Of a stretch of 32,000 nt of DNA, positions 2,232 to 18,068 are shown piece by piece. A program made the position numbers and the translations under genes. Positions within the stretch are counted from its first letter, which is position 1. Each line of letters starts with the position of its first letter. Under the pieces are notes generated by a model, which was given only the letters and a program-made list of their open reading frames with translations, made no database searches and had not been told where the DNA came from. Source of the DNA: Edaphobacter aggregans (GTDB lineage: Bacteria; Acidobacteriota; Terriglobia; Terriglobales; Acidobacteriaceae); assembly GCF_003945235.1 (NCBI RefSeq), contig NZ_RSDW01000001.1, positions 30,001 through 62,000 on the forward strand, written 5' to 3'.

Positions 2232-3245
2232 GTGACCACTACCACCCTTGACCTGGCTGTAACAAACGAAAACGGCAACACGACAAAGACCAAGCGCGTA
2301 CTTCTCCTTAAGCCCCGTGGCTTTTGTGCGGGTGTTGTGCGGGCTATCGACATTGTCCAGATTGCGCTCGATACTTTCGGCGCGCCGATCTACGTCCGCA
2401 AGGAGATTGTTCACAATAGCTACGTGGTGAATGACCTCGCCAAAAAAGGCGCAATCTTCGTTAACGAACTGGACGAAGTGCCTGAAGGCGCACGGGTTAT
2501 CTATTCGGCCCACGGTGTCTCTCCGGCAGTTCGGGAGCGTGCCAAGGAGCGTGGGTTGAAAGTCATCGATGCGACCTGCCCGCTGGTGACCAAGGTGCAT
2601 GTTGAGGCGATCAAGTTCGCCAAGCAGGGTTATTCGCTGGTGCTGGTTGGGCATCGCGATCACGAGGAAGTCGAGGGAACCCAGGGTGAAGCCCCGGATG
2701 TGACGCAGGTGGTTTCGACCGTCGAAGAGGTTGCGGCTCTGGTTGTTCCCGACCCAAACAAGGTCGCTTATCTCACGCAGACGACGCTTTCGCTGGACGA
2801 GGCTCGCTACATGATCGAGGCCTTGAAGAAGAAATTCCCGAACATTATCGGGCCACACGCGCAGGATATCTGCTACGCGACTGAGAACCGTCAGACTGCG
2901 GTCAAGAATGTCGCTCATGGAGCCGACCTGGTTCTGGTGGTTGGTTCGCGGAACAGTTCGAACTCCAATCGTCTGGTCGAAGTCTCGAAGAATCTCGATA
3001 CGAACTCTTACCTGATCGACACAGCCGATGCCATCCAGCCTGATTGGCTCGACGGCGTCGATACGGTCGCTGTGACCGCGGGCGCTTCTGCTCCCGAGGT
3101 GCTGGTGAAGGATGTTGTTGAGTACCTGCAGGCGAAGGGCTATGGTTCGGTCGATGAGGTGGAGGTCATGCCGGAGAATGTCCGCTTCGGCCTACCGCCC
3201 GAGATCGTCCAAGCTATAGCGTCCGCTCCGCCAGCAGCACGGTAG
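2232..3245 (+). CDS. ispH: 4-hydroxy-3-methylbut-2-enyl diphosphate reductase (IspH/LytB)
   Basis: 337-aa ORF with a GTG start. Motifs 'KPRGFCAGVVRAI', 'DATCPLVTKVH' and 'NSSNSNRL' supply the conserved Cys ligands of the IspH 4Fe-4S cluster. First gene of the same-strand hopanoid operon. Confidence 0.92.
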   Translation: MTTTTLDLAVTNENGNTTKTKRVLLLKPRGFCAGVVRAIDIVQIALDTFGAPIYVRKEIVHNSYVVNDLAKKGAIFVNELDEVPEGARVIYSAHGVSPAVRERAKERGLKVIDATCPLVTKVHVEAIKFAKQGYSLVLVGHRDHEEVEGTQGEAPDVTQVVSTVEEVAALVVPDPNKVAYLTQTTLSLDEARYMIEALKKKFPNIIGPHAQDICYATENRQTAVKNVAHGADLVLVVGSRNSSNSNRLVEVSKNLDTNSYLIDTADAIQPDWLDGVDTVAVTAGASAPEVLVKDVVEYLQAKGYGSVDEVEVMPENVRFGLPPEIVQAIASAPPAAR

Positions 3246-3268: not shown

Positions 3269-5308
3269 TTGCCTCAGATGAGTGGTCAATCTTCACGCAA
3301 TCCGCAGACGGTCACCCAGCCCGCGCAGCCGCGCTTTGGGCGTATGGACCTTGGCCTGGAGCATGTCGCCAACGGCATCGCTCGCGCCAAGGAGTGGCTG
3401 CTTGGCCAGCAACATCCTGACGGGTACTGGTGTGGAGAGCTTGAAGCGGACAGCATGCTCGAGTCCGACTACATCTTTATGCACACGCTGCTCGGTACCG
3501 GCGACCCGGGCAAAATGGAGCGTGCCATCAACGAGATTCTCCGCCACCAGAATGAAGACGGTGGATGGAGCCTGTATCCGGGTGGACCTTCGAATATTAA
3601 CTACGGAGTCAAAGCGTATCTGTCACTGAAGCTTATGGGCTGGTCGAAGGACCACCCTGTGCTGGTGAAGGCGCGTGAGTGGGTGTTGGCGCACGGTGGT
3701 GTGACCGAGTGCAATACCTTCACTAAGATTTATCTCTGTGCGTTGGGTCAGTATGACTATGACGCTGTGCCGGCTATTCCGCCCGAGATCGTTCTCTTTC
3801 CTAACTGGTTCTACTTCAACATCTACGAGATCTCTTCGTGGTCACGCGGCATTTTGGTTCCGTTGTCGATCATCTACGCGAAGAAGCCGTTCAAGAAGCT
3901 TGCACCAGAACAGGGCATTGAGGAGTTGTTCGTCGGTGGCCGCGAGAACTCAAACCTGCATCTGCGCTGGGACAAGAAGCGTCCCGTCAGTTGGCGAAAT
4001 TTCTTCCTCTTTACCGATCGCATGGTTCACTGGTTTGAGCGCGTACACATTCGCCCGCTGCGTAAGGTCGCGATCAAAAAAGCTGAGAAGTGGATGCTCG
4101 AGCGATTCGAGAAATCGGATGGTTTGGGTGCGATCTATCCCGCGATGCTGAACTCCATCGTTGCGCTGCGATGCCTCGGGCGTTCTGTAGACGATCCGCA
4201 GATGATCCGTGCACTCGACGAATTCGAAAAGTTGGGTATTGATTGCCCCGACGGTACGGAAGACTACCCAACACCCACTTTCCGGATGCAGCCTTGCTTC
4301 CCGCCTGTATGGGATACGGCTCAGGCGATGTATGCTCTTGGCGAGGCAGGAGTCCGAAAGGATGATCCGCGCATGCTGAAGGCGGCTGACTGGATTTTGT
4401 CCAAGGAAGTACGTCAGAAGGGCGACTGGGCCGAGAAGGTCAAGAACGTCGAACCGGGTGGTTGGTACTTCGAGTTCAACAATGAGTTTTACCCGGATGT
4501 TGATGATACCGGGCAAGTTCTGCTGGCGTTGAACTGCGTCGACAATCCTCGCGAGCGCTATCAGTATGACGCTTGTCAGCGTGCGCTGAACTGGATATGG
4601 GCGATGCAGTGCAAGAACGGTGGATGGGCTGCTTTCGATAAGGACAACACCAAAAGCATCTTCCAGTACATCCCGTTTGCCGACCACAACGCGATGCTTG
4701 ATCCACCGACTGTCGACATCACCGGCCGCATGCTGGAGATGTTGGCGCAGTACGGATTTACGAGAAAGGATCCGCGCGTCGAGAAAGCTGTTCAGTTCAT
4801 CCTGAAGGAACAGGAGCCCGACGGAAGCTGGTTCGGGCGATGGGGCGTCAACTATCTCTACGGCACGTTCCTGGTTCTGCGCGGCCTTGAGGCGATGGGC
4901 TTCTGGAACCATGAGCCCGCAGTGCAGCAAGCCGCGGAATGGATTCGCATGGTGCAAAACGCCGATGGCGGATGGGGCGAGACCTGCGGCACGTATGACG
5001 ACCCCAACCAGCGCGGCATTGGGCCGAGCACGCCATCGCAGACGGCATGGGCGGTTCTTGGGCTGCTGGCTGCGGGTGACACGCGTTCCGATTCTGTTGC
5101 GAAGGGCGTTCGTTGGCTAGTGGAGCGCCAGCACAAGGACGGAAGTTGGGATGAACTCGTGCCGGGACGCAACGGCGAGAGCTACTACACGGGAACAGGT
5201 TTTCCGCGCGTCTTTTACCTTGGATATCACTTGTACAAGCAGTACTTCCCCTTGCTGGCGCTGACGACATACGAGCGCGCCATGGGGCGGGAAGAGGCGG
5301 CAGCGTAG
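3269..5308 (+). CDS. shc: Squalene-hopene cyclase
   Basis: 679-aa ORF from TTG 3269. ATG 3278 (MSGQSS...) has better spacing to GAGAG and may be the true start. Catalytic 'DVDDTG' (DxDD) motif. Repeated QW-type motifs (e.g. 'QNEDGGW', 'QCKNGGW', 'QEPDGSWFGRWGVNYLYGT', 'QNADGGWGE', 'QHKDGSW'). 'STPSQTAWA' and 'YTGTGFPRVFYLGY' closely resemble the Alicyclobacillus SHC sequence as I recall it. Confidence 0.96.
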   Translation: MPQMSGQSSRNPQTVTQPAQPRFGRMDLGLEHVANGIARAKEWLLGQQHPDGYWCGELEADSMLESDYIFMHTLLGTGDPGKMERAINEILRHQNEDGGWSLYPGGPSNINYGVKAYLSLKLMGWSKDHPVLVKAREWVLAHGGVTECNTFTKIYLCALGQYDYDAVPAIPPEIVLFPNWFYFNIYEISSWSRGILVPLSIIYAKKPFKKLAPEQGIEELFVGGRENSNLHLRWDKKRPVSWRNFFLFTDRMVHWFERVHIRPLRKVAIKKAEKWMLERFEKSDGLGAIYPAMLNSIVALRCLGRSVDDPQMIRALDEFEKLGIDCPDGTEDYPTPTFRMQPCFPPVWDTAQAMYALGEAGVRKDDPRMLKAADWILSKEVRQKGDWAEKVKNVEPGGWYFEFNNEFYPDVDDTGQVLLALNCVDNPRERYQYDACQRALNWIWAMQCKNGGWAAFDKDNTKSIFQYIPFADHNAMLDPPTVDITGRMLEMLAQYGFTRKDPRVEKAVQFILKEQEPDGSWFGRWGVNYLYGTFLVLRGLEAMGFWNHEPAVQQAAEWIRMVQNADGGWGETCGTYDDPNQRGIGPSTPSQTAWAVLGLLAAGDTRSDSVAKGVRWLVERQHKDGSWDELVPGRNGESYYTGTGFPRVFYLGYHLYKQYFPLLALTTYERAMGREEAAA

Positions 5309-5345: not shown

Positions 5346-6485
5346 ATGGCAGTTCCAGTCTCGCAAGCTTGGACAGTTGCAACGTACGTTTTAAAACAGA
5401 AATTGATGGGCCGGAAGAGGTATCCGCTCGTGCTGATGCTCGAACCGCTCTTCCGCTGCAACCTGGCTTGCGCCGGCTGCGGCAAGATCCAGTATCCGGC
5501 ACATATCCTGAAGACCGACCTGTCGCCCGAAGAGTGCTTCAAGGCAGTCGAAGAGTGCGGTACGCCGATGGTCTCGATTCCTGGCGGAGAGCCTCTGCTG
5601 CATCCTCAGATGCCGGAGATTGTTGCCGGTCTAGTTGCGCGCAAGAAGTACGTCTACATGTGCACCAACGCCCTGCTGTTGAAAGAGAAGCTGCACCTCT
5701 TCAAGCCGAGCAAGTATCTTTCGTTTTCCGTTCACGTCGACGGCCAGCGCGAGCATCATGACTTCTCCGTCTGTCGAGAGGGTGGGTACGATATCGCGAT
5801 GGAGGGAGTTCGTGCTGCGGTTGCGGCAGGATTCCGCGTTACTACGAACACGACGCTCTTCGATGGTGCCGACCCCAACTCCGTGCGCGCACACTTTGAC
5901 GAGTTGATGGAAGTTGGTGTCGAGAGCATGATGGTCTCGCCCGGCTACACCTACGACAAGGCTCCTGACCAGAATCATTTTCTGGGCAAGGCGAAGTCGC
6001 GCAGGATGTTTCGCGCCATCCTTTCCAACCGTAAGAAGTCCTGGCGCTTCAATACGCATCCGCTCTTCTCCGAGTTTCTGATGGGCAAGCAGAACTTCGA
6101 ATGCACACCTTGGGGCATGCCGACGTTTTCGATCTTCGGCTGGCAGAAGCCGTGCTATTTGCTACAGGATGGTTACGCCGATACGTTCCAGGAACTGATG
6201 GAAACGACGAACTGGCAGAACTACGGTGCAAAGAGCGGCAATCCACAGTGTGCTAACTGCATGGTTCACTCCGGACACGAGGCCTCAGCAGTGGATTACA
6301 ACTTCGGCTCATTGAAGGGGTTCCTGATTACAGCAAAGAAATACATGTTCCCATCGACCTATCCAGACGAGGGCGCGATGAAGCTGTTGAACGAGTGGCG
6401 GCCAGAACATGCCAGCCCGCTGGTCCAGATTAAGGCCTCTGCCGGTACGGCCAACAATGAACTGCAGTCAGTTTCAGGAGATTAG
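5346..6485 (+). CDS. hpnH: Adenosylhopane synthase, radical SAM (HpnH)
   Basis: 379-aa ORF. GGAGGAG at 5333-5339, 6 nt before the ATG. Radical-SAM cluster motif 'CNLACAGCG' (CxxxCxxC). Length and position next to shc, hpnA and hpnG fit the HpnH family. Confidence 0.88.
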   Translation: MAVPVSQAWTVATYVLKQKLMGRKRYPLVLMLEPLFRCNLACAGCGKIQYPAHILKTDLSPEECFKAVEECGTPMVSIPGGEPLLHPQMPEIVAGLVARKKYVYMCTNALLLKEKLHLFKPSKYLSFSVHVDGQREHHDFSVCREGGYDIAMEGVRAAVAAGFRVTTNTTLFDGADPNSVRAHFDELMEVGVESMMVSPGYTYDKAPDQNHFLGKAKSRRMFRAILSNRKKSWRFNTHPLFSEFLMGKQNFECTPWGMPTFSIFGWQKPCYLLQDGYADTFQELMETTNWQNYGAKSGNPQCANCMVHSGHEASAVDYNFGSLKGFLITAKKYMFPSTYPDEGAMKLLNEWRPEHASPLVQIKASAGTANNELQSVSGD

Positions 6486-6490
6486 GCATC

Positions 6491-6937
6491 ATGGCGACTG
6501 AGCAACAGGAGCACCTGAAGATCGAACAACTGCGGCACCAGAGTGCCGACGAGCTCGAACACATCGAAGGTCGCGAACGCGAGAACCTTGAGGGATGGGT
6601 TCCGGCACTGGCTACGGATGCTGAGATTCGTGAGGCGTTGGAGAAGGCCTTTGATTATCGTGGCGATATCACCATCACTCGGAAGGATGGTTCGCAGGTC
6701 ACAGGCTATCTCTTCGACCGTCGCTCAGGCTCTTCGCTGGCGGACTCCTTTGTTCGCATCATTCCATCGAACGCACCGACAAAGGTGAACGTTGCCTACG
6801 CTGACATTGCCGCGCTGGCGTTTACCGGTCGCGACACTGCAGCCGGAAAAACCTTCGAAGCCTGGGTCAAGAAGTACTGGGAGAAGAAGGCAGCGGGCGA
6901 AAAGAACATCCAGATCGAACCCGAAAAGCTGGATTAA
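6491..6937 (+). CDS. Hypothetical soluble protein embedded in the hopanoid operon (no domain recognised)
   Basis: 148-aa ORF starting 5 nt after the hpnH stop, with GGAG inside the hpnH 3' end. No signal peptide, TM helix or cofactor motif. Acidic N-terminus, then a predicted beta-rich core ('DYRGDITITRKDGSQVTGYLFD', 'SFVRIIPSN..KVNVAYADIAALAFTG') and a basic C-terminal helix. Confidence 0.75.
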   Translation: MATEQQEHLKIEQLRHQSADELEHIEGRERENLEGWVPALATDAEIREALEKAFDYRGDITITRKDGSQVTGYLFDRRSGSSLADSFVRIIPSNAPTKVNVAYADIAALAFTGRDTAAGKTFEAWVKKYWEKKAAGEKNIQIEPEKLD

Positions 6938-7015: not shown

Positions 7016-8026
7016 GTGCGCGTATTTATTACGGGAGCGACGGGCTTCGTCGGGGCTCATGTGGCCCGAAAGTATGCGTCCGAGGGCGCAAGCCTTCGTT
7101 TATTAACCAGGCAGACGAGCAGGCTGGATGCACTGGCAGGTCTCGATGCAGAGACCGTGGTAGGCGATTTGCGCGAGCCGGAGAAGCTGCGCTCCGCACT
7201 TACGGGATGCGATGCGTTGGTTCATGTCGCCGCCGACTACCGGCTGTGGGTGCGCGATCCGCAGCAGATGTACGCCGCTAACGTCGATGGGACTCGCGAA
7301 TTGCTCCGGCTGGCGCGTGAGACCGGCGTACGGCGCGTGGTATACACGTCGAGCGTCGCCACCATGGGGTTCAAATCCGACGGGACGATAGTGAACGAGG
7401 ACACGCCCGTCTCGATCGTCGATATGATCGGCCATTACAAGCGGTCGAAGTTTCTCGGCGAGCAGGAGGCCATTAAAGCTGCAAAGGCCGGACAGTATGT
7501 GATGATTCTGAATCCGACCACACCCATCGGTCCCGGTGACGCGAAGCCCACGCCGACAGGTCGAATCATCGCCGACTTCCTGAATAAGAAGTTTCCTGCC
7601 TATGTAGATACAGGCCTCAACCTTGTTGACGTCGCTGAGGTGGCACGGATGCATGTTGAAGCTCTGGACCACGGAACTCCGGGCGAGCGGTACATCCTCG
7701 GCGGTGAGAATCTGACCCTCAAGCAAATTCTCGACCGTATGTCCGCGATCACCGGCCTCCCTTCGCCGACCATGAAAGTGCCGCATTCCGTTGCGATGGC
7801 GTTTGCTTTCTTTGACGAGACATTTACAGGCAAAATGCTAGGCAAAGAGCCGCGCGCTACAGTTGAGGCTGTGCGCATGGGGAAGAAGATGATGTTCGCC
7901 ACCTCGATGAAAGCTGAACGCGACCTCGGCTTCAAGGTGCTACCAATCTACAACGCGCTGCGCTCCGCAATCGAATGGTTCGTCGCTAACGACTATGCTC
8001 CTCCTTTCTCCAAGCCCACCCTATGA
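7016..8026 (+). CDS. hpnA: Hopanoid-associated NAD(P)-dependent sugar epimerase/dehydratase-family SDR (HpnA)
   Basis: 336-aa ORF with a GTG start. N-terminal Rossmann 'VFITGATGFVGAHV' and extended-SDR catalytic 'YKRSK' (YxxxK). Sits between hpnH and hpnG. Its stop overlaps the hpnG start (ATGA). Confidence 0.85.
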   Translation: MRVFITGATGFVGAHVARKYASEGASLRLLTRQTSRLDALAGLDAETVVGDLREPEKLRSALTGCDALVHVAADYRLWVRDPQQMYAANVDGTRELLRLARETGVRRVVYTSSVATMGFKSDGTIVNEDTPVSIVDMIGHYKRSKFLGEQEAIKAAKAGQYVMILNPTTPIGPGDAKPTPTGRIIADFLNKKFPAYVDTGLNLVDVAEVARMHVEALDHGTPGERYILGGENLTLKQILDRMSAITGLPSPTMKVPHSVAMAFAFFDETFTGKMLGKEPRATVEAVRMGKKMMFATSMKAERDLGFKVLPIYNALRSAIEWFVANDYAPPFSKPTL

Positions 8027-8703
8027 AAGAGTGTCCCGCCATCATCGCCGCGTTGCCCCGCGAGGTGAAGCATCTGGTACGAGGCTGGAAGCGGGAGCAC
8101 CTACCTGGCAAGATCCATGCCTATACCAACGATTTTGCGGTTGTCGTCTGCGCTGGCATGGGACCTGCACGCGCCACACTTGCCGTTCAGGCGGCGATGT
8201 CGCTTAAGCCTGTAACGGCGCTGCTCTGCGTAGGTGTTGCAGGTGCGTGCGATCCGTCCCTCGCTGTAGGAGACGTCGTTAAGGCAGGTGTTGTCGTAGA
8301 CACACAGTCGGGCGAACGATTCACAGACTCGCCGTTCAGGCAGGTGTTGGTCAGTACGCCAGCCATCGCCAGTGTTCGGGAAAAGCAACGACTCCATGCC
8401 TCGTATGGCGCTGCTGCCGTCGATATGGAGGCTGCAACCGTGGCGCGAATCGCTCAAGCGCACGATCTTGCATTTCATGCGATCAAGGCCATCTCCGACG
8501 ACGCGTCCTTCGAGCTTCATGAACTTGCTCGTTTTGCTACAGATGACGGCCAGTTTCGCGAGGCAGCATTTGCTGCACATGCGCTTCTGCGTCCACAGCT
8601 TTGGAGCAAACTGATACAGCTTGCAGGCAATAGCAAGCGTGCGATCAATGCCCTGACGAAGGAGCTTGAATCGCAGCTAGACTGGTATAGGCGGAGCGCT
8701 TAA
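8023..8703 (+). CDS. hpnG: Hopanoid-associated nucleosidase/phosphorylase, PNP_UDP_1 family (HpnG)
   Basis: 226-aa ORF. MtnN-like motifs 'GVAGACDP' and 'AVDMEAATVA'. 4-nt ATGA overlap with hpnA. The context matches the adenosylhopane nucleosidase step. Confidence 0.8.
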   Translation: MKECPAIIAALPREVKHLVRGWKREHLPGKIHAYTNDFAVVVCAGMGPARATLAVQAAMSLKPVTALLCVGVAGACDPSLAVGDVVKAGVVVDTQSGERFTDSPFRQVLVSTPAIASVREKQRLHASYGAAAVDMEAATVARIAQAHDLAFHAIKAISDDASFELHELARFATDDGQFREAAFAAHALLRPQLWSKLIQLAGNSKRAINALTKELESQLDWYRRSA

Positions 8704-8707
8704 ACGG

Positions 8708-9823
8708 ATGTCAACAGATCAGAACCAGCAAGACCTTACAGTTCCCACAACTATGCGTGCAGCCGTCTACCACGGCGTTAATGATGTGCGCGTTGAAACG
8801 ATTCCAGTTCCTGAAATCAGCCCTGGAGAAGTGTTGGTTAAGATTCATACCTGTGGGATCTGTGGGACCGACCTCAAGAAAATTCACACGGGTTCGCACA
8901 GCGCGCCGCGTGTCTTTGGGCACGAGATGTCGGGAACAATTGTTCGGGTGGGTGAAGGTGTCACAGGCTTCGCGATTGGCGATCGGGTGATGGCTTATCA
9001 CCACATCCCTTGCGGCGAGTGTTACTACTGTCGCAAACAGACGTTCGCGCAGTGCGAGGTCTATAAGAGGGTCGGTTGCACTGCTGGGTTTGCCCCTTCG
9101 GGTGGTGGCTTTGCGGAGTACATTCGTGTAATGGATTGGATCGTCCGGCGCGGGTTGGTGAAGATACCCGACGGTATTCCCTTCGAGCAAGCGGCCTTTA
9201 TCGAGCCGGTGAATACCTGCTACAAGGCGATCCAGTTGCTCAATCTTCAGTCTGACGAGACCGTGTTGGTCATCGGCCAGGGTTCGATTGGGATTCTTCT
9301 CGCAGCGCTGGCAAGAAAGACTGGCGCGACGGTGCTTACCAGCGACTTATATCCTGAGCGTCACGCTGTTGCTGCAAGATTTGGCCTTGATCATCCGCTC
9401 GATGCACGAGGCGATGTCGTGGCGGCTGCTAAAGCAGTTACTGAAGGTCGCGGCGCTGACGTAGCTCTGCTTGCAGTAGGGGGCGACGCGCTCATCAAGA
9501 TTGCAATGAATGCGATTCGACCCGGTGGGCGCGTGATGCTCTTCGCGGCGACGCAACACGGTGAGTCTCCGTTCGATCCTGCGGCCGTATGCATGGACGA
9601 GAAGACCCTTATGGGGTCCTACAGTTCATCGGTGGCGATCAACGACGAGGTTGCGCAGTTGGTGCTCGATGGTTATGACAATGGCTTTGACCTGACGCAG
9701 CTAATCTCTCACAGGTTTTCGATTGAGGATGCTGTGGCAGCAATTGAGCTGGCCTCTCACCCGCAGGCTGATTCGTTGAAGATCGTCATTCAACCTTCGA
9801 CTAATCTCGTGTCCGCTTCTTGA
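8708..9823 (+). CDS. Zinc-dependent medium-chain dehydrogenase/reductase (sorbitol/threonine-dehydrogenase-like), last gene of the hopanoid operon
   Basis: 371-aa ORF starting 4 nt after the hpnG stop. Catalytic-zinc motifs 'CGICGTDLK' and 'GHEMSG'. Structural-zinc 'CGECYYCRKQTFAQC'. Rossmann 'VIGQGSIGIL'. Confidence 0.9.
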   Translation: MSTDQNQQDLTVPTTMRAAVYHGVNDVRVETIPVPEISPGEVLVKIHTCGICGTDLKKIHTGSHSAPRVFGHEMSGTIVRVGEGVTGFAIGDRVMAYHHIPCGECYYCRKQTFAQCEVYKRVGCTAGFAPSGGGFAEYIRVMDWIVRRGLVKIPDGIPFEQAAFIEPVNTCYKAIQLLNLQSDETVLVIGQGSIGILLAALARKTGATVLTSDLYPERHAVAARFGLDHPLDARGDVVAAAKAVTEGRGADVALLAVGGDALIKIAMNAIRPGGRVMLFAATQHGESPFDPAAVCMDEKTLMGSYSSSVAINDEVAQLVLDGYDNGFDLTQLISHRFSIEDAVAAIELASHPQADSLKIVIQPSTNLVSAS

Positions 9824-11246
9824 CCTCAACGCTGAGCCGCTTGATCTTCTGGTTCAACGTTGAAAGCGGAATCCTGAAGTACTCGGCTGCTTCCGTCTGG
9901 TTCCAATGGCAGCGTTCCAGGCGATCTGCAATGATGCGCCGCTCGATCTCCTCCATCAGGTCGAAGAGGGAAGCGTCGGGCTGATGCTCCAGCAGTGTTG
10001 CCGAGTAGGTGTTGCCTGTCAATTGCGCTGGAAGCAACTCGGGCGTGATCATCTTCGAAGTAGAGAGTACGACGCCGCGCTCCATCGCGTTCTCCAGTTC
10101 GCGCACGTTGCCGGGCCACTCGTAGTCCATCAAGACGCGCATCGCCTCCGGTGACAACACCCGCTCACCGGTCTCATTCTCCTCGCCGTAGAACTTGAGG
10201 AAGTGTGCCGCCAGAAGAGGAATATCCTGGCGCCGCGAACGCAGTGGTGGCAGCTCAAGACAGATGACGTTCAAGCGATAGAAGAGGTCTTCCCGGAACC
10301 GACCGGCCCGCACCGCTTCCTGCAGGTTAACATTGGTCGCCGCGATGATCCGCACGTCTACCTGAATCTCCTGCACGCCGCCCAGGTGCATGAAGCGCCG
10401 ATCCTGCAGCACGCGCAAAATCTTGGCCTGCATGTCGAGGCCCATAGTGCCAATTTCATCGAGGAACAGCGTCCCGCCATTAGCGACTTCGAAGAGGCCT
10501 TTCTTAGCAGAGATCGCGGACGTGAACGCACCCTTGACGTGGCCAAACAGCGTGGACTCCAGCAGCTCTGACGGTACGGCACCGGTATTCACGGGAACGA
10601 ACGGACGATCTCGGCGCGGAGAATTTGCGTGGATGGCCTTAGCGAAGAGCTCCTTACCTGTGCCGCTCTCACCCTGCAACAGCACGGTCGAACGACTTGG
10701 AGCGACCTGTGCGATGAGGTCGAAGAGGCGTAGCATTGGCTCGCTCTTGCCGACAATGTTTTCGAAGTTGTACCGCTGCTTGAGCGTCCGTTTAAGCTGG
10801 ATTATCTCTTCTTCGGCGCGATGCTTTGCGATGGCGGTGCGAATGTCCGCGAGCAGCTTCTCGTTGTCCCATGGCTTCTGGACGAAGTTCTCAGCGCCTG
10901 CGCGAATGGCATCGACCACGTTACCAACTGTGCCGAATGCAGTGATCATGATGACCGGCAGGTTGGGCTGCATCTCGATGATGCGGGGCAACAGATCAAG
11001 TCCGCTCTCACCGGGCAATGCAAGGTCCAGCAGCAGCAGATCGAACTCATTGCGCGAGATCAGATCCATGCCCGTCGCGCCATCGCCCGCCATACTGACG
11101 GTGAAACCTTCCAGCGTCAGCAATGTATCGAGCGATTCGCGTATGGCCGCCTCATCATCGATGATCAAAATGCGGGGGCTGCCGGCGATATGCGCCGTAT
11201 CTTGCGGGCGGGCGGACTCTGCGGCCACCGCGGTTGTTTCAGACAT
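9801..11246 (-). CDS. Sigma-54-dependent response regulator (NtrC family: REC, AAA+, Fis-type HTH)
   Basis: The ORF track gives 9801..11279. The ATG at 11246 (MSETTAV...) overlaps the kinase stop as ATGTCTGA, so I call 481 aa. REC domain ('ILIIDDE', acceptor region 'LLLLDLALPG'). Walker A 'GESGTGKE'. Sigma-54 contact loop 'GAFTSA'. 'ESTLFGH'. C-terminal HTH 'NQTEAAEYFRIPLSTLNQKIKR'. Confidence 0.9.
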   Translation of the reverse strand: MSETTAVAAESARPQDTAHIAGSPRILIIDDEAAIRESLDTLLTLEGFTVSMAGDGATGMDLISRNEFDLLLLDLALPGESGLDLLPRIIEMQPNLPVIMITAFGTVGNVVDAIRAGAENFVQKPWDNEKLLADIRTAIAKHRAEEEIIQLKRTLKQRYNFENIVGKSEPMLRLFDLIAQVAPSRSTVLLQGESGTGKELFAKAIHANSPRRDRPFVPVNTGAVPSELLESTLFGHVKGAFTSAISAKKGLFEVANGGTLFLDEIGTMGLDMQAKILRVLQDRRFMHLGGVQEIQVDVRIIAATNVNLQEAVRAGRFREDLFYRLNVICLELPPLRSRRQDIPLLAAHFLKFYGEENETGERVLSPEAMRVLMDYEWPGNVRELENAMERGVVLSTSKMITPELLPAQLTGNTYSATLLEHQPDASLFDLMEEIERRIIADRLERCHWNQTEAAEYFRIPLSTLNQKIKRLSVEVKKRTRD

Positions 11247-14214
11247 GAATCGTCTTCCTCTCCAACTCCTGCGTATCACTTGCGCGCGCGGGCTCGGGGA
11301 TCACAGCAGTCCGGCCGCCGGAGGTAGGGAACTCCAGCTGGAAGGCTGTGCCGATGCCAACCTCGCTCTCGACGTGGATCTTGCCGGCATGCTCCTGCAT
11401 GATCCCATAGCTGACTGCCAACCCAAGGCCTGTGCCTTTATGCGCGCCTTCCTGCGGTTTGGTCTTCGTGGTAAAGAATGGATCGTAGATGCGGTGCAGA
11501 TGCTCGCGTTCGATACCCCCGCCGGAATCCTGAATGCGAACGAGCACCCGTCCCGCCCCACTGAAGGTTGCAATCCGCAGCGTTGCATTGGGGGTGCCTA
11601 GCATAGCGTCCTTCGCGTTCAGCATCAGGTTCAGGATGACCTGCTGCAGCTTGCCGCGGTTTCCATGGATACGCGGGAGCTGCGGGTCAAAATTGGTCTC
11701 GACACGAATCTTCGCCGTCTTCAGCTGATGGTCAAGCAGGGCAATCGTATCGCGTAACAGTTCGTTAAGATCGACGTCGGTGAACTCCGTCCCGCTGGTG
11801 CGAGAGAAGTTCAGCAGTCCGTTAACAATCTCCGACGCGCGGAAGGTCTGCTGCGTAATCTTCTCGAGCACCGGCGCGAGGCGCTCGTCATCTCGCATAT
11901 ATTTGGTCAACATTTGGGCATAGCTGGAGATGACAGCCAGCGGTGTGTTGACCTCGTGCGCGACCCCGGCGGCGAGCAAGCCGATCGAAGAGAGCTTCTC
12001 AGATTGTGTAAGCTGAGCCTCGAGCTGCATCCTGTCTGTAATGTCATCGACCAGAATGATCCGTCCGACAGTGATGAAGTCGCGTGTGACCAGCGGCGCG
12101 ATGGCAATATTGGCGGTCCGCACCTCACCGGTCGGCAGTGCTAGACGGAACTTGTAGAGTGTATGCGTCCCCTGCTCGTCGCGCACGCTGTTGAATCGTG
12201 AGACGAACTCCGGCGGGAAGACAGAGGAGAGCGGCTGGCGCAGCGCATCGATCCGAGGCTTCGCGTACATCGCCTCCATCTGTGCGTTCCAGCTTTCGAT
12301 CCTGTCGTCCAGATCGACCGCGAAGATGCCAATGTTGATCGATTCAACGATGTTCTCGTTGAACTCCTTCAACCGCTCGAAGTCGCTGATCTTCTGCTCA
12401 AGCCGACGGTAGAGCTGCGCGTTTTGAATAGCGATACCGATGTAGCCGGCCAGCGACTCCAGCAGTTCCATGTCTTCGCTGGAGAGGAAGTCTCCGTCAT
12501 CCGTGCGTCCCAGACCGATCACCGCGACCGTCCTGTTGCCGCCTCCCTCGCGATTGGCAACGCGGCAGGGCAGATAGTAGTTCAGGTCGAGCCTGCCTGC
12601 GCTTGAGCGCTGCGCCTCCGGCAGACGTAGTACCTGCTGCGGATTCTCGAGGAAGATATGATTGTTTGCGCCCGGCCGGTCGAAGTCGAAAAAGCGCACG
12701 TCCAGCGCCTTAAGGTCGGTCGCCTGCAGGTTCGTCAGTCCGTGTGATGCCGCCAGTTCAAAGTGTCGCTCGGCAAACGTATCATCGGTCTCCTTAGCAA
12801 GGAAGACCGCGACTCGCGTTACCAGCAGCGTCTGCGGCAAACGCTCGACGATGGAATCGACCAGCGCTCGCAGATCGGTCTGCGAGTTCAGCCCTCGGCC
12901 AAACTCCACCAGGGTCTCGCGGTAGTCGAATCGCTTTTGATCAAAGATCCGATCGACTCGCGCCTGAATCGCCCGCTTCAGCGGATCAAAGACTAGGCCG
13001 GTTACGATGACTGCAGCCAGAAATCCCCACGTACGCAGGCTGGGATTGTTTAGCCGTGCACGAACGACCTCTGCCGTTAACGCAATCACGCCGAAGTACA
13101 AGCCCACGAGCGATGCCGTAGCCAGCGTGTAGGTCACACCGCGCTTGAATATCAGGTCGACGTCCATCAACCGGTAACGCACAATCGCCCAACTGAAGGT
13201 CAGCGGAACAAAGACCAGCGAGAGCCCAGCTAACTTCTGCAGCAGGGTCGGCACGGCCGCATCCGACAGATAGGGGATGACATAAAGGACCGTGAACGGC
13301 GTAATCGCGATCATCGTGCCGCGAGTGAGCCACTTCAATTGCTGCCGCTCCAGCGCAGACTCAGCTCTCTTGTATCGGAACTGGAAGACGATTCCTGCGA
13401 TAACGTAGTAGAGCGCGAGATATCCGACCGCGATCTGGTCTAGACGATGGCGCAACACCTCGGTCGCCGACCAGTAGTGAAGCGCGACAAACTGTAACCC
13501 GATAAGAAAGATTCCCGGCAGGTAGAGGGCTACCGTCAGGAGGCGTCGGCCAAGGCGTTTGCGCTGCTCTCCTGAGGCAAAGCTAATTGCAAAGTGCAGG
13601 AAGAGCGCCGGTTGTAGCGCTCCGGCCGCAATGCGACCCCAGTAGATGATCGAATCAAAGGTGTCGAATTTGGTGGTGTAGTTGAAGGAATACAGCACAA
13701 ACGAGACGAGACAGAAGACGTAGAAATGCGTCGATTTGGGCGCAGTCCATCGTCGGAACAGGACGTAGATCCCGATACACAGGTACACCAGCGCAATAAA
13801 TCGCAGGCCGAGGTTGATGGACCGATCTGTCGGCTCCAGAATCACCTGAATATCGAGCTTAGCCGCACCCGAAAGATCGCTTGCGTGGGGAAGCGGCCTG
13901 AGAATCGAGTAGGTCGCATGGGCCCAGATGCCGCTGTGGAACATCTCGCGGACAAACGGAGCCAGCCGCTCCGTCGGTCTATCGTTGATGCTAACCAGCA
14001 CGTCCCCGGCGCGTACTCCGGCCCGCTGACCTGGTGAATCGGGGGGAACCTGCTCGGCTCGTAGACCACCCTGGGTTTCAACCCACCAGATGCCGTCCGT
14101 CGGTACGTCAAAGCTGCTTTCGCGCTCGAAGTTCATCGCGGCGAGCACACAGGCCGCCACCGTCGCCAAGGCGAGTGCGATAGCCAGAATGCGCGTTTGG
14201 GCAGCGTTCTTCAT
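11239..14214 (-). CDS. Sensor histidine kinase with extracytoplasmic PDZ domain, polytopic membrane region, GAF/PAS-like modules, HisKA and HATPase_c
   Basis: 991-aa ORF. TM1 ('ILAIALALATVAACVLAA'). PDZ-like segment at aa ~41-107 ('GGLRAEQVPPDSPGQRAGVRAGDVLVSINDRP', coordinates ~13894-14094). About nine further hydrophobic helices. Cytoplasmic sensory modules. H-box 'AAGVAHEVNTPLAVI'. ATPase G-boxes 'DSGGGI' and 'GTGLGLAVS'. Confidence 0.9.
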   Translation of the reverse strand: MKNAAQTRILAIALALATVAACVLAAMNFERESSFDVPTDGIWWVETQGGLRAEQVPPDSPGQRAGVRAGDVLVSINDRPTERLAPFVREMFHSGIWAHATYSILRPLPHASDLSGAAKLDIQVILEPTDRSINLGLRFIALVYLCIGIYVLFRRWTAPKSTHFYVFCLVSFVLYSFNYTTKFDTFDSIIYWGRIAAGALQPALFLHFAISFASGEQRKRLGRRLLTVALYLPGIFLIGLQFVALHYWSATEVLRHRLDQIAVGYLALYYVIAGIVFQFRYKRAESALERQQLKWLTRGTMIAITPFTVLYVIPYLSDAAVPTLLQKLAGLSLVFVPLTFSWAIVRYRLMDVDLIFKRGVTYTLATASLVGLYFGVIALTAEVVRARLNNPSLRTWGFLAAVIVTGLVFDPLKRAIQARVDRIFDQKRFDYRETLVEFGRGLNSQTDLRALVDSIVERLPQTLLVTRVAVFLAKETDDTFAERHFELAASHGLTNLQATDLKALDVRFFDFDRPGANNHIFLENPQQVLRLPEAQRSSAGRLDLNYYLPCRVANREGGGNRTVAVIGLGRTDDGDFLSSEDMELLESLAGYIGIAIQNAQLYRRLEQKISDFERLKEFNENIVESINIGIFAVDLDDRIESWNAQMEAMYAKPRIDALRQPLSSVFPPEFVSRFNSVRDEQGTHTLYKFRLALPTGEVRTANIAIAPLVTRDFITVGRIILVDDITDRMQLEAQLTQSEKLSSIGLLAAGVAHEVNTPLAVISSYAQMLTKYMRDDERLAPVLEKITQQTFRASEIVNGLLNFSRTSGTEFTDVDLNELLRDTIALLDHQLKTAKIRVETNFDPQLPRIHGNRGKLQQVILNLMLNAKDAMLGTPNATLRIATFSGAGRVLVRIQDSGGGIEREHLHRIYDPFFTTKTKPQEGAHKGTGLGLAVSYGIMQEHAGKIHVESEVGIGTAFQLEFPTSGGRTAVIPEPARASDTQELERKTIHV

Positions 14215-17237: not shown

Positions 17238-18068
17238 TTACTTTCCGAAAGACTCAGCTTCAATCGACTGCACTGTAAGGTGAGTTTTCTCCTGCAGAAG
17301 AGCAAGAAGCGTTGGATCAATCTCTTTTTGCCGTCCGCGATTGTCGGCAGATGACCAACGGCTGCCATCAGCGAATTCTAAGACGATGGCAGGGCTGTGC
17401 TGGAGAGTGCCATCTCGAAGACGAACTCCGTCGACTGTCAAGACGGTTTTTATGTCGGAATAAGGATGATAGGTGGAGCGTAAGGATGCATATCCGCCGA
17501 TCTTGAGACCATCCTGGTCAAACGATGTATGCAAAGGCAGAGCCAGTAAAGTCAAACAGCCGATTGGTAACGCGACAAAAACTATCAGAATCCTCAAAAC
17601 GCGAGTCGCATTGAAACCCATTTTAGCGTTAGACCAAGCGGCATATTTCATTGCTCGCTGTCTATTTCCAAATGTCGACCAGGCGATAAACGTCAGTTCC
17701 CATGTCAACGAAGCAGCGCCGAATAGGGGAAAGAAACACCATATAGCCCTTTCGGGCAAAAGGGTAAGAATGGCGGGATTGTCTCGACCAGCCAATAATC
17801 CATTAGCCCAAAGAAGGAACGTATAGCTCCCGTAGGCAAACGTTGCCGCGACAAGGATCATTACTAGAGCCAAACCCCACTGCAGTTTAGAGAATTCCTC
17901 TGTGAGTTCACTCGAGACCTGAGTGCTTTCAGGAGGAGGCGGCATATACTTGCGGGCTAATGCAAAGACCAAGGCAACCGCAGCAGGCACAGCAATACGT
18001 CGGGCGATTTCAGCGAAGGCTTGGAGATGACTCATGGAATAGCTCGAGTCTAACCGAAGGAAAGTCAA
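17238..18068 (-). CDS. Hypothetical membrane protein (about 4 TM plus C-terminal soluble domain), low-GC orphan
   Basis: 276-aa ORF; the start may be Met12 (MSHLQAF, 18035). Hydrophobic helices 'IAVPAAVALVFALA', 'GLALVMILVAATFAYGSYTFLLW', 'AIWCFFPLFGAASLTWELTFIAW', 'VLRILIVFVALPIGCLTLLAL'. Lines 17521-17640 count 45% G+C, against 60-65% in neighbouring genes. Confidence 0.6.
   Translation of the reverse strand: MTFLRLDSSYSMSHLQAFAEIARRIAVPAAVALVFALARKYMPPPPESTQVSSELTEEFSKLQWGLALVMILVAATFAYGSYTFLLWANGLLAGRDNPAILTLLPERAIWCFFPLFGAASLTWELTFIAWSTFGNRQRAMKYAAWSNAKMGFNATRVLRILIVFVALPIGCLTLLALPLHTSFDQDGLKIGGYASLRSTYHPYSDIKTVLTVDGVRLRDGTLQHSPAIVLEFADGSRWSSADNRGRQKEIDPTLLALLQEKTHLTVQSIEAESFGK

Follow-up and report, generated by a model that had tools for sequence, protein, structure and literature searches.

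A predicted Sm-like barrel domain encoded beside or fused to the adenosylhopane synthase HpnH, and its possible role as an HpnH partner

HpnH begins the construction of the side chain on hopanoid membrane lipids and thereby commits them to the extended (C35) series, all bacteriohopanepolyols of which depend on it. These lipids serve as geological biomarkers and are important for membrane robustness. Acidobacteria, in which the gene studied here was found, rank with the most abundant bacteria of soils. In 2020, Sato et al. reportedly found the HpnH of S. coelicolor active alone in vitro; since HpnH of other organisms is thus said to work without the domain described below, that domain would be an optional, lineage-specific accessory. 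In radical-SAM maturases, a small non-catalytic domain, the RiPP recognition element (RRE), occurs fused to the enzyme or as a separate neighbour and aids substrate engagement. By analogy, ug3, the protein considered here, may be another fused-or-separate small domain of a radical-SAM enzyme, although the RRE is a winged helix rather than a predicted Sm-like barrel, is usually N-terminal, and serves enzymes acting on a peptide instead of a triterpene/SAM substrate. WYL domains (as in BrxR, CapW, DriD, and PafBC), which are Sm/SH3-like ligand sensors, offer a second possible analogy, in that they are small barrels serving other proteins as modules for ligand binding, whether attached to them or as partners. 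Their fold matches to ug3 are marginal, however, no match to the Pfam WYL family (PF13280) was obtained, the partner of ug3 is an enzyme, and no helix-turn-helix or transcription-factor architecture occurred among any of the ug3 family architectures examined.

The name ug3 was given by Sinninghe Damsté et al. (2017, Front Microbiol 8:968; PMC5462960) to the gene after hpnH, with its function unassigned, in the “cluster B” (isp gene-shc-hpnH-ug3) of subdivision-1 Acidobacteria. That report stated ug3 to be absent from subdivision 3 and recorded its position alone, with no family, fold, distribution, or function. The open reading frame analysed here is the same gene, and the preliminary description of this locus, which presented it as newly noticed, had therefore been anticipated in 2017. 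Neither a 2026 review of radical-SAM lipid enzymes (PMC13459092) nor a 2025 microsynteny survey (PMC12324291) describes an HpnH accessory factor, and the survey would miss the ug3 family because it is based on domain annotations, of which this family has none. HpnS (MlaA-like) and HpnT (DUF2147), both from that survey, belong to families other than ug3 as judged by comparison with the literature only. What is new here, on sequence evidence, is that the ug3 domain is the C-terminal domain of long HpnH proteins.

The hopanoid locus of Edaphobacter aggregans

The window, a 32,000-nucleotide stretch of the E. aggregans genome, includes a same-strand cluster with the gene order ispH-shc-hpnH-ug3-hpnA-hpnG-ADH. 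Upstream of ug3 on the forward strand lie ispH (2232-3245), shc (3269-5308; TIGR01507, 734.8 bits), and hpnH (5346-6485), which encodes a 379-aa adenosylhopane synthase with radical-SAM and DUF3463 domains (PF04055 and PF11946). Residues 1-316 of this protein match TIGR03470 at 529.5 bits, and it extends ~60 aa past the 318-position model. Downstream, also on the forward strand, are hpnA (7016-8026; TIGR03466, 476.7 bits), an hpnG-like nucleosidase gene (8023-8703) that overlaps hpnA by 4 nt and scores 101.7 bits, below the cut-off of 187.1, and a Zn-dependent alcohol dehydrogenase gene (8708-9823), which is the “ug1” of PMC5462960. The HpnH, SHC, HpnA, and IspH calls were made with NCBIfam, all above curated cut-offs, and no terminator-like site was found between ug3 and the hpnA, hpnG-like, and alcohol dehydrogenase genes.

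ug3 itself occupies positions 6491-6937 of the forward strand, with an ATG start and 148 codons followed by a stop, and its translation matches the one quoted previously. The hpnH stop codon (TAG, 6483-6485) and the ug3 ATG at 6491 are separated by a 5-nt spacer (GCATC), and a Shine-Dalgarno-like AGGAG, read from the sequence, lies on the forward strand at 6476-6480, within the last hpnH codons and 10 nt before the ATG, in agreement with the original reading of a start 5 nt past hpnH and a ribosome-binding site inside it. The homologues of ug3 number in the thousands, and dN/dS was 0.02-0.10 against 11 of the 15 orthologues compared (dS was saturated in the remaining four). By these sequence comparisons, ug3 is a real gene rather than a chance open reading frame, and is under strong purifying selection.

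The domain family comprises 801 clusters at 50% identity and is unannotated. Searches with the protein against Pfam, NCBIfam, and PDB sequences returned no match even at E<=10, it matched nothing in PADLOC, and a 124-sequence family profile and the single protein both came back empty from Pfam, NCBIfam, PADLOC, and PDB chains. Likewise, none of the curated hopanoid models HpnA-R (NCBIfam/TIGRFAM and Pfam, E<=10) was matched, which upholds the initial statement that ug3 corresponds to no described hpn gene or domain.

Linkage and fusion to HpnH

Synteny was counted over the best 80 loci each of a genome scan, queried with an 8-sequence alignment, and a metagenome scan, both locus sets being dominated by Terriglobia. 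Directly upstream of ug3 and on the same strand, hpnH was found in 74 of 77 assessable genome loci and 41 of 42 metagenome loci. Other genes of the cluster were less constant, with shc upstream in 60/70 and 10/23 loci and hpnA downstream in 52/70 and 11/51 (genomes and metagenomes, respectively); hpnH is thus a closer companion of ug3 than either shc or hpnA. The two genes stay side by side even where shc, ispH, hpnA, and hpnG now lie elsewhere, and ug3 is present in essentially all Terriglobales sampled. Among 132 hpnH-ug3 pairs with a callable start, 57 were separated by a gap of 0-20 nt and 44 overlapped, the overlaps including 28 of the 4-nt ATGA type, seven larger ones that derive from upstream-ATG calls, and two fused reading frames. 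Because this synteny sample comes mostly from one class, Terriglobia, adjacency by itself might be a legacy of common descent. In-frame fusions lift the case above shared ancestry, as does a locus from another phylum (Planctomycetales ZRK34) in which a ug3 copy lies between ispH-hpnCDE and shc/hpnR.

Fusions were called where the ug3 domain began after residue 300 in a protein of total length >=430 aa. The domain proved to be an unannotated C-terminal domain of many 465-550-aa proteins named “adenosyl-hopene transferase HpnH”, and 75 HpnH-annotated proteins in the retrieved set carry it after residue 300. In these long forms, the C-terminal ~110 residues are homologous to ug3 and keep all invariant motifs (AFDYRGD, GY.FDR, and F[TS]G.D.A.G.S.E.W), whereas Pfam finds only PF04055 and PF11946. 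They differ from ug3 in being covalently attached through a variable, disordered linker, and in lacking the segment with W36 and P38 that characterises stand-alone members. Named sources include Paraburkholderia megapolitana, Paraburkholderia sp., Bryobacteraceae, and Bryobacterales, and the complete genome of Acidobacteriaceae ZG23-2 encodes a clean 509-aa fusion. Bryobacteraceae and Bryobacterales, which we take to be the subdivision 3 lineage, carry the domain fused to HpnH, and hence the absence previously reported from that subdivision is probably a fusion instead. Two other candidates, P0145 and L031, were discarded because their Arg-rich, garbled linkers point to a frameshift or read-through artefact; fusions P0171 and L061 look genuine. 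In a domain tree, fused forms fell at >=4 separate places amid stand-alone relatives, which implies repeated fusion or fission. A domain repeatedly fused to or split from HpnH offers a well-defined, inexpensive object for genetic and enzymological work, and the family merits a Pfam/InterPro entry, with which long-form HpnH would be annotated correctly.

Relatives outside hopanoid loci were also found, namely a galE-adjacent clade, a trpE neighbour, fusions to cpYpsA/SLOG domains, and an Acidobacteriaceae locus (L063) that, like a second one (L062), carries ug3 without a nearby hpnH. A short-chain dehydrogenase neighbour of a divergent ug3 clade was considered as an HpnA homologue and rejected, as it is GalE. 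Homologues lying mostly outside hopanoid loci had been named at the outset as the finding that would count against a hopanoid role; such members do exist, next to galE or trpE or fused to cpYpsA/SLOG, but they are a minority of the family. The proposed tie between this gene and HpnH or hopanoid biosynthesis is instead strengthened by the near-constant adjacency, the frequent stop/start overlaps, and the C-terminal fusions.

Predicted fold and conserved residues

The AlphaFold2 (AF2) model of ug3 shows a beta core of five strands, preceded by an N-terminal helix of low confidence and followed by a C-terminal helix, much as had been sketched from the sequence. Residues 1-30 (6491-6580, forward strand as for all segments below) form a variable, acidic segment with pLDDT 49-57 that corresponds to the flexible linker of fused proteins. 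Within residues 31-38 (ENLEGWVP; 6581-6604), G35 is kept family-wide, while conservation of W36 (81%) and P38 (86%) is limited to stand-alone, hopanoid-linked members; these two positions are deleted in fusions and read D/F in non-hopanoid members, and we consider the segment a candidate for docking to HpnH. The Sm-like core spans residues 43-111 (6617-6823; pLDDT 81-95), with a helix at 43-53 and strands at 59-64, 69-78, 87-92, 99-102, and 106-111, and includes the invariant AFDYRGD (53-59), GY.FDR (72-77), and R89. It is followed by an invariant loop at residues 112-121 (T-G-R-D-T-A-A-G-K-T; 6824-6853), marked by G113, D115, A117, and G119, and by the C-terminal helix at residues 122-134 (FEAWVKKYWEKKA; 6854-6892), with an invariant W125 and conserved Y129, E131, and K132. 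Across the family, AFDYRGD, G-Y-x-F-D-R, R89, F-x-G-x-D-x-A-x-G, and W125 follow in this order within ~110 residues, at positions that are invariant or >=90% conserved in 124- and 361-sequence alignments, and every one of them is present in the window protein. Conservation of the polar and aromatic residues stays at 90-100% regardless of the partner, a pattern that favours a binding function residing in the domain itself.

Foldseek searches with the ug3 model placed Hfq, LSm/SmAP, and Gemin6/7 proteins at the top and also matched WYL domains, all of them marginal matches (best E 7e-3, none <=1e-3), with the Hfq matches reaching a TM-score relative to the target of 0.72-0.74 and an rmsd of 2.7 Å over ~65 residues. 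The AF2 prediction, confident in its core, is a helix-plus-five-strand Sm-like barrel, the likeness to Sm/Hfq/LSm residing in the predicted N-terminal helix followed by five bent strands. Similarity in sequence was not found, with no Pfam LSM/Hfq match and an hhalign probability of 0.4% (E 0.16) between the family profile and an approximate E. coli Hfq sequence. Compared to Sm/LSm/Hfq proteins, which assemble into rings and bind RNA, ug3 has an additional invariant loop and C-terminal helix, is acidic, and occurs in a context of lipid biosynthesis rather than RNA; its pI of 5.2 argues weakly against RNA binding.

ug3 is also hydrophilic (GRAVY -0.67), and no transmembrane segment was detected (Kyte-Doolittle maximum of 0.77 in a 19-residue window), as initially proposed. 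In contrast, the idea of a membrane-surface adaptor acting through a Lys-rich C-terminal helix found no support: that helix is weakly amphipathic (hydrophobic moment 0.20-0.25), conserved C-terminal positions include the charged E123, E131, K132, and E137, and a membrane-anchoring amphipathic helix was rejected on the low moment. The protein had further been described as having no nucleotide-binding motif. This holds for a canonical Walker A (G-x4-G-K-[ST]), yet the invariant loop G113-R-D-T-A-A-G119-K-T (G-x5-GKT) is only one residue off it, and in the AF2 model it comes after a beta-barrel and not after a Rossmann-like strand. With zero cysteines, and no cofactor motif of any kind, an electron-carrier role is excluded. 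None of the redox or Fe-S accessory features considered (SPASM/twitch, ferredoxin-like, or flavodoxin-like) was recognized in the protein, and none of the 50 top-ranked Foldseek matches listed, out of 1281, has a ferredoxin- or flavodoxin-like fold.

A model of a fused protein (pTM 0.86, overall pLDDT 83.9) shows a disordered linker at 355-372 and a barrel at pLDDT 92-98. In this model, the segment equivalent to ug3 residues 31-38 rises to pLDDT 72-94, and the invariant loop reaches 71 compared to 56 in the isolated model. Such a gain in confidence is what a docked domain would give, and from pTM and pLDDT alone we infer that the barrel may be docked on HpnH. Foldseek matched the fusion model to radical-SAM cores alone (BlsE, SuiB, viperin, and MoaA), and to no solved enzyme with a comparable appended barrel.

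A possible role alongside HpnH

We consider it likely that ug3 is a free-standing, non-catalytic Sm-like barrel domain of ~110 residues that partners HpnH and possibly binds a ligand. The occurrence of the same domain fused to the C-terminus of HpnH in other bacteria suggests that ug3 is an HpnH helper subunit, with the HpnH of the window as its presumed partner. Among the roles listed in the preliminary description, an HpnH accessory subunit is thus the best fit to the natural fusions, the adjacency, and the overlaps. In Terriglobales, ug3 and HpnH would be produced from one transcript and often be translationally coupled; in Bryobacteraceae, in some Paraburkholderia, and in certain other Acidobacteria, the domain is joined through a flexible linker to the C-terminal end of HpnH. 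ug3 would bind HpnH, in the split form probably via the GW.P segment conserved in stand-alone members only, leaving a partner-independent set of residues (Y56, R57, D59, Y73, D76, R77, R89, D115, and W125) to bind a putative ligand or surface. Such binding would assist or regulate diploptene adenosylation.

Our preferred, and speculative, guess for the ligand is an adenosyl or nucleoside moiety, either of a SAM-derived species or of the adenosylhopane product, whose binding might help product handling or hand-off to HpnG, or let ug3 act as a regulatory sensor. cpYpsA belongs to the SLOG family and has been described as a binder of nucleotides or ligands (PMC6459960); its fusion to the ug3 domain is compatible with a nucleoside-type ligand. 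A bolder version, which we put forward tentatively and as improbable in its full form, is that ug3 represents an unrecognised class of adenosyl/nucleoside-binding Sm-like modules. In that version, the module would act as a separable helper to a radical-SAM enzyme that modifies lipids; it would capture either a SAM-derived by-product or the adenosyl end of the adenosylhopane, so as to drive product release or hand-off to HpnG, and unrelated systems would employ it again together with SLOG (cpYpsA) domains that process nucleotides.

The resemblance to ring-forming Sm/Hfq/LSm and Gemin6/7 barrels, the flexible tether of the fusions, and the position of ug3 between hpnH and hpnA-hpnG in many loci would also suit a scaffold, in which rings or dimers organise HpnH, and perhaps HpnG or HpnA, at the membrane without any small ligand. 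We regard this as unlikely, given that the fold matches are marginal and lack sequence homology to Sm/Hfq, that the C-terminal helix is not strongly amphipathic, and that seven invariant charged or aromatic residues shared across unrelated partners resemble a binding site more than an oligomer interface. The same partner-independent residues, along with the Sm-like or WYL-like predicted fold, the cpYpsA/SLOG fusions in non-hopanoid loci, and the stand-alone copies next to galE or trpE, could point to a general WYL- or Hfq-like sensor or regulator of nucleotides, nucleic acids, or other metabolites that was recruited to HpnH in some lineages and that, in Edaphobacter, could act on the hopanoid operon, controlling its expression or activity, without a part in catalysis. 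That possibility appears poor, as sampled members are overwhelmingly adjacent or fused to HpnH, no DNA-binding domain or Pfam WYL/LSM/Hfq match was found, and an acidic pI is ill-suited to nucleic-acid binding. A sensor of an HpnH-related ligand would merge with the HpnH-partner reading.

The HpnH substrate is a membrane-embedded C30 olefin, and the preliminary description had accordingly proposed a carrier or chaperone, here a barrel that would take up diploptene or the hopane moiety, either to bring it to HpnH or to remove it from the enzyme. In Paraburkholderia, the gene directly after the fused hpnH-ug3 gene encodes an SRPBCC/Polyketide_cyc2 protein, a fold that binds lipids, which hints that lipid handling matters in this context. 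Nevertheless, a carrier role seems very improbable for a barrel of ~70 residues with a hydrophilic surface, whose conserved Arg/Asp/Tyr site is poorly suited to enclosing a pentacyclic triterpene, and whose 50 top-scoring Foldseek matches listed, of 1281 in all, include no lipocalin or MlaC-like fold. Finally, although nearly all sampled adjacent pairs come from one bacterial class and two loci carry ug3 away from hpnH, a hitch-hiker with no functional link, held next to hpnH by phylogenetic inertia in Terriglobia, is scarcely credible and already disfavoured by the independent in-frame fusions in several lineages including one betaproteobacterial genus, by an adjacency that outlasts the relocation of the other hopanoid genes, by the planctomycete copy in a hopanoid region, and by the strong purifying selection acting on ug3.

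Natural HpnH fusions and the hpnH neighbourhood

The ORF at 6491–6937 (+ strand, 148 aa), here called ug3, encodes a domain that recurs as a partner of HpnH either in cis or in trans. A search for single ORFs covering both hpnH and ug3 recovered a clean 509-aa HpnH–ug3 fusion in the complete genome of Acidobacteriaceae ZG23-2 (locus L061), and this protein as a query retrieved dozens of 465–550-aa proteins spanning 100% of its length, the named sources including Paraburkholderia megapolitana, Paraburkholderia sp., Bryobacteraceae/Bryobacterales, and unclassified Acidobacteria. These long-form proteins are annotated as HpnH alone, with PF04055 and PF11946 as their only Pfam domains, and carry all ug3 motifs in their C-terminal ~110 residues, with variable, Ala/Pro/Ser-rich linkers. 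A domain HMM identified 75 fusions among the retrieved proteins, and their fused domains fell at four or more separate places amid stand-alone relatives in a rough neighbor-joining tree of the domain, which argues for repeated fusion or fission. Such fusions are classic Rosetta-stone evidence, suggesting that the HpnH and ug3 polypeptides act together. Another apparent fusion (L031, 8840–10447) was rejected as a frameshift artefact, its garbled, Arg-rich “linker” imitating a fusion; hpnH/shc/ug3 matches are broken or frameshifted in this MAG and in those of L020 and L046, whose assemblies look indel-rich, and all three should be kept out of fusion counts.

Bryobacteraceae we take to be Acidobacteria subdivision 3 (SD3). 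The lack of ug3 in SD3 genomes reported by Sinninghe Damsté et al. (PMC5462960) is probably explained by HpnH fusions. The P. megapolitana fusion (L174:10001–11599, 532 aa), 67% identical to that of ZG23-2, lies outside any hopanoid cluster, with no shc within 10 kb and an SRPBCC/Polyketide_cyc2 gene following it, which suggests an extra hpnH copy gained horizontally.

An exhaustive search of 1.84 billion representatives placed ug3 homologues in 801 clusters at E ≤ 1e-3 and 467 at E ≤ 1e-10 (50% identity), sharing the core AFDYRGD ... G-Y-x-F-D-R ... R ... F-x-G-x-D-T-A-A-G-K-S-x-E-x-W. The preliminary description had tied the gene to hpnH, and among the best 80 genome and best 80 metagenome loci, both Terriglobia-dominated, hpnH indeed lay directly upstream on the same strand in 74/77 and 41/42 assessable loci, respectively. 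Upstream shc (60/70 genome and 10/23 metagenome loci) and downstream hpnA (52/70 and 11/51) were less constant, and ug3 therefore tracks hpnH rather than the remaining cluster. The two genes overlap in 44 of the 132 pairs with a callable start (28 by a 4-nt ATGA-type overlap, 7 by larger overlaps reflecting upstream in-frame ATG calls, and 2 as fused ORFs) and are 0–20 nt apart in another 57, a pattern that fits translational coupling. Since the samples are mostly Terriglobia, adjacency by itself could be inherited, and a disfavoured rival reading would make ug3 a mere hitch-hiker. An independent stand-alone copy lies between ispH-hpnC-hpnD-hpnE and shc/hpnR in Planctomycetales ZRK34. Five MAG loci (L017, L020, L022, L043, L056) show the full acidobacterial recN-ispH-shc-hpnH-ug3-hpnA-hpnG-alcohol dehydrogenase order, with ug3 68–82% identical to that of the window; their bins are assigned to Rhodanobacteraceae, Gammaproteobacteria, Sphingomonas, Lichenicola, and Novosphingobium, probably through mis-binning of acidobacterial contigs.

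The proposed hopanoid tie held in that HpnH is numerically the dominant partner, but not for every member. In one clade, the domain is fused C-terminally to cpYpsA (PF12694; L082:10001–10873, L173:8001–8750), a SLOG-superfamily domain described as nucleotide/ligand-binding (PMC6459960), and no hopanoid link was seen at these two loci, which lack hopanoid genes; their conserved neighbourhood comprises a T2SS-E ATPase, a filament-like coiled-coil protein, a lipid A acyltransferase-family gene, and a response regulator. A divergent clade (124–160 aa) is always head-to-head with a gene that on testing proved not HpnA-like but galE (UDP-glucose 4-epimerase, TIGR01179, 377 bits; L084:8912–10375, L170:229–1692, L171:6105–7607), the called genes overlapping at their 5′ ends in L170 and L171; frequent downstream genes encode a GT2 glycosyltransferase and a GMC oxidoreductase. 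One further member adjoins trpE, and in the Acidobacteriaceae MAG L063 ug3 is apart from hpnH. Given these members, the domain is an independent module, with HpnH its most numerous partner.

The ug3 gene of Edaphobacter aggregans

The ug3 product is identical (100%) to EDE15_0031, and the gene is real, as indicated by thousands of homologues and a pairwise dN/dS against orthologues of 0.02–0.10 (with dS near saturation); the domain is under strong constraint. As first described, its ATG follows the hpnH stop (TAG, 6483–6485, +) by five bases; AGGAG (6476–6480, +) lies inside hpnH. The + strand order is recN, ispH, shc, hpnH, ug3, hpnA, an hpnG-like nucleosidase, and a Zn-dependent alcohol dehydrogenase (neighbours by NCBIfam), and no terminator-like site was found between hpnH, ug3, and hpnA in a scan for terminators and promoters whose site count in the window was below that of shuffled sequence. 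The nucleosidase (8023–8703, +), overlapping the hpnA stop by 4 nt (8023–8026), is counted as a divergent HpnG given its 101.7 bits against the TIGR03468 cut-off of 187.1. Elsewhere in the window, a 276-aa ORF (17238–18068, −) matches no Pfam family at E ≤ 1e-3.

Searches of Pfam, NCBIfam, PADLOC, and PDB sequences, including with a 124-sequence profile, returned no match to ug3, in agreement with the initial failure to assign it to a described hpn gene or domain, and all source annotations read “hypothetical protein”. The gene itself is not new, its existence and position having been published in 2017 as “ug3” (Sinninghe Damsté et al., PMC5462960); the hopanoid pathway and the fold class were likewise known. 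Neither ug3 nor a long or fused HpnH is mentioned in a 2026 review of lipid-modifying radical-SAM enzymes (PMC13459092), a 2025 microsynteny preprint that names hpnS and hpnT (PMC12324291), or a 2025 alphaproteobacterial survey (PMC12583986), and a targeted literature search found nothing. What the present analysis adds is that ug3 is homologous to the C-terminal domain left unannotated in long-form HpnH, together with the extent of the family, its predicted Sm-like fold, and the logic of its conservation.

Predicted fold and conserved residues

An AF2 model from a 124-sequence alignment (mean pLDDT 72; 81–95 in the core, residues ~41–110) predicts an Sm-fold topology, with a helix (43–53) and strands at 59–64, 69–78, 87–92, 99–102, and 106–111, followed by a low-confidence invariant loop (112–121) and a helix (122–134). 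The best Foldseek PDB matches were Hfq, LSm/SmAP, Gemin6/7, the Sm-like variant XC5848, and DUF903 lipoproteins, along with WYL domains of BrxR, CapW, DriD, and PafBC. These likenesses are marginal (best E-value 7e-3, none reaching 1e-3) and the family profile showed no sequence relationship to Hfq (probability 0.4%), so we describe ug3 as predicted to be Sm-like in fold and assign it to neither the Sm/Hfq nor the WYL families.

In a model of a 507-aa fusion (P0386; 97-sequence alignment, pLDDT 83.9, pTM 0.86), the barrel (pLDDT 92–98) follows a disordered linker (355–372). As HpnH makes up only ~70% of the chain, so high a pTM suggests that the model docks the barrel on the enzyme with confidence. 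The counterpart of window residues 21–40 rises from pLDDT 49/71 in isolation to 72/94 in the fusion, and the invariant loop from 56 to 71. Foldseek matches of the fusion to solved radical-SAM enzymes extended no further than the catalytic core. The window HpnH (5346–6485, +) has a ~60-residue tail (residues ~317–379) past the 318-position HpnH model, a region that forms helices right before the modelled linker and may be a ug3 docking surface.

Across 361 domain sequences (71 fused, 279 stand-alone, 11 non-hopanoid/cpYpsA), A53, F54, Y56, R57, G58, D59, G72, D76, R77, R89, F111, G113, D115, A117, G119, W125, Y129, and G136 are 90–100% conserved in all three groups, with lower values in one class each for Y73 (81%, Y/F) and E137 (88%). 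These residues may form an intrinsic binding site or meet requirements of the fold itself. Conservation of the “G-W-x-P” segment (W36 81%, P38 86%) is confined to stand-alone hopanoid-linked sequences: fusions lack both residues, and the non-hopanoid group has D and F at the two positions. The segment is a candidate docking element for untethered ug3.

Possible roles

The domain, a small barrel with neither a cofactor motif nor a cysteine, is non-catalytic by all the tests available; the protein is acidic (pI 5.2) and hydrophilic (GRAVY −0.67, maximum 19-residue hydropathy 0.77). We consider it fairly likely that ug3 serves HpnH as an accessory domain in the synthesis of C35 hopanoids, making it an accessory variant in a known pathway and not a new type of system. 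It would bind HpnH, while its conserved Tyr/Arg/Asp site would bind something that all its contexts share. HpnH works with SAM, the 5′-deoxyadenosyl radical, and adenosylhopane (PMC13459092), and the sole other fused partner is the SLOG nucleotide-binding domain, hence the preferred guess that the ligand is adenosyl- or nucleoside-like and that ug3 would help to handle the product, pass it on to HpnG, or exert regulation; these nucleoside-binding specifics are doubtful. Rival roles are those of a scaffold or oligomeriser, a generic sensor, or a lipid carrier. The membrane-surface adaptor first proposed from the Lys-rich C-terminal helix was dropped, since this helix is only weakly amphipathic (muH 0.20–0.25) and charged residues are among those it conserves.

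Directly after hpnA-hpnG, the Zn-dependent alcohol dehydrogenase (8708–9823, +) recurs in most Terriglobales loci examined. As we know of no enzyme reducing ribosylhopane to bacteriohopanetetrol, it is an obvious candidate for this step; the gene was labelled “ug1” by Sinninghe Damsté et al. (PMC5462960). Convergent to it are genes for a sigma-54-dependent response regulator (492 aa) and a 991-aa sensor histidine kinase (9801–14214, −), the regulator's 3′ end overlapping that of the dehydrogenase gene by ~20 nt.
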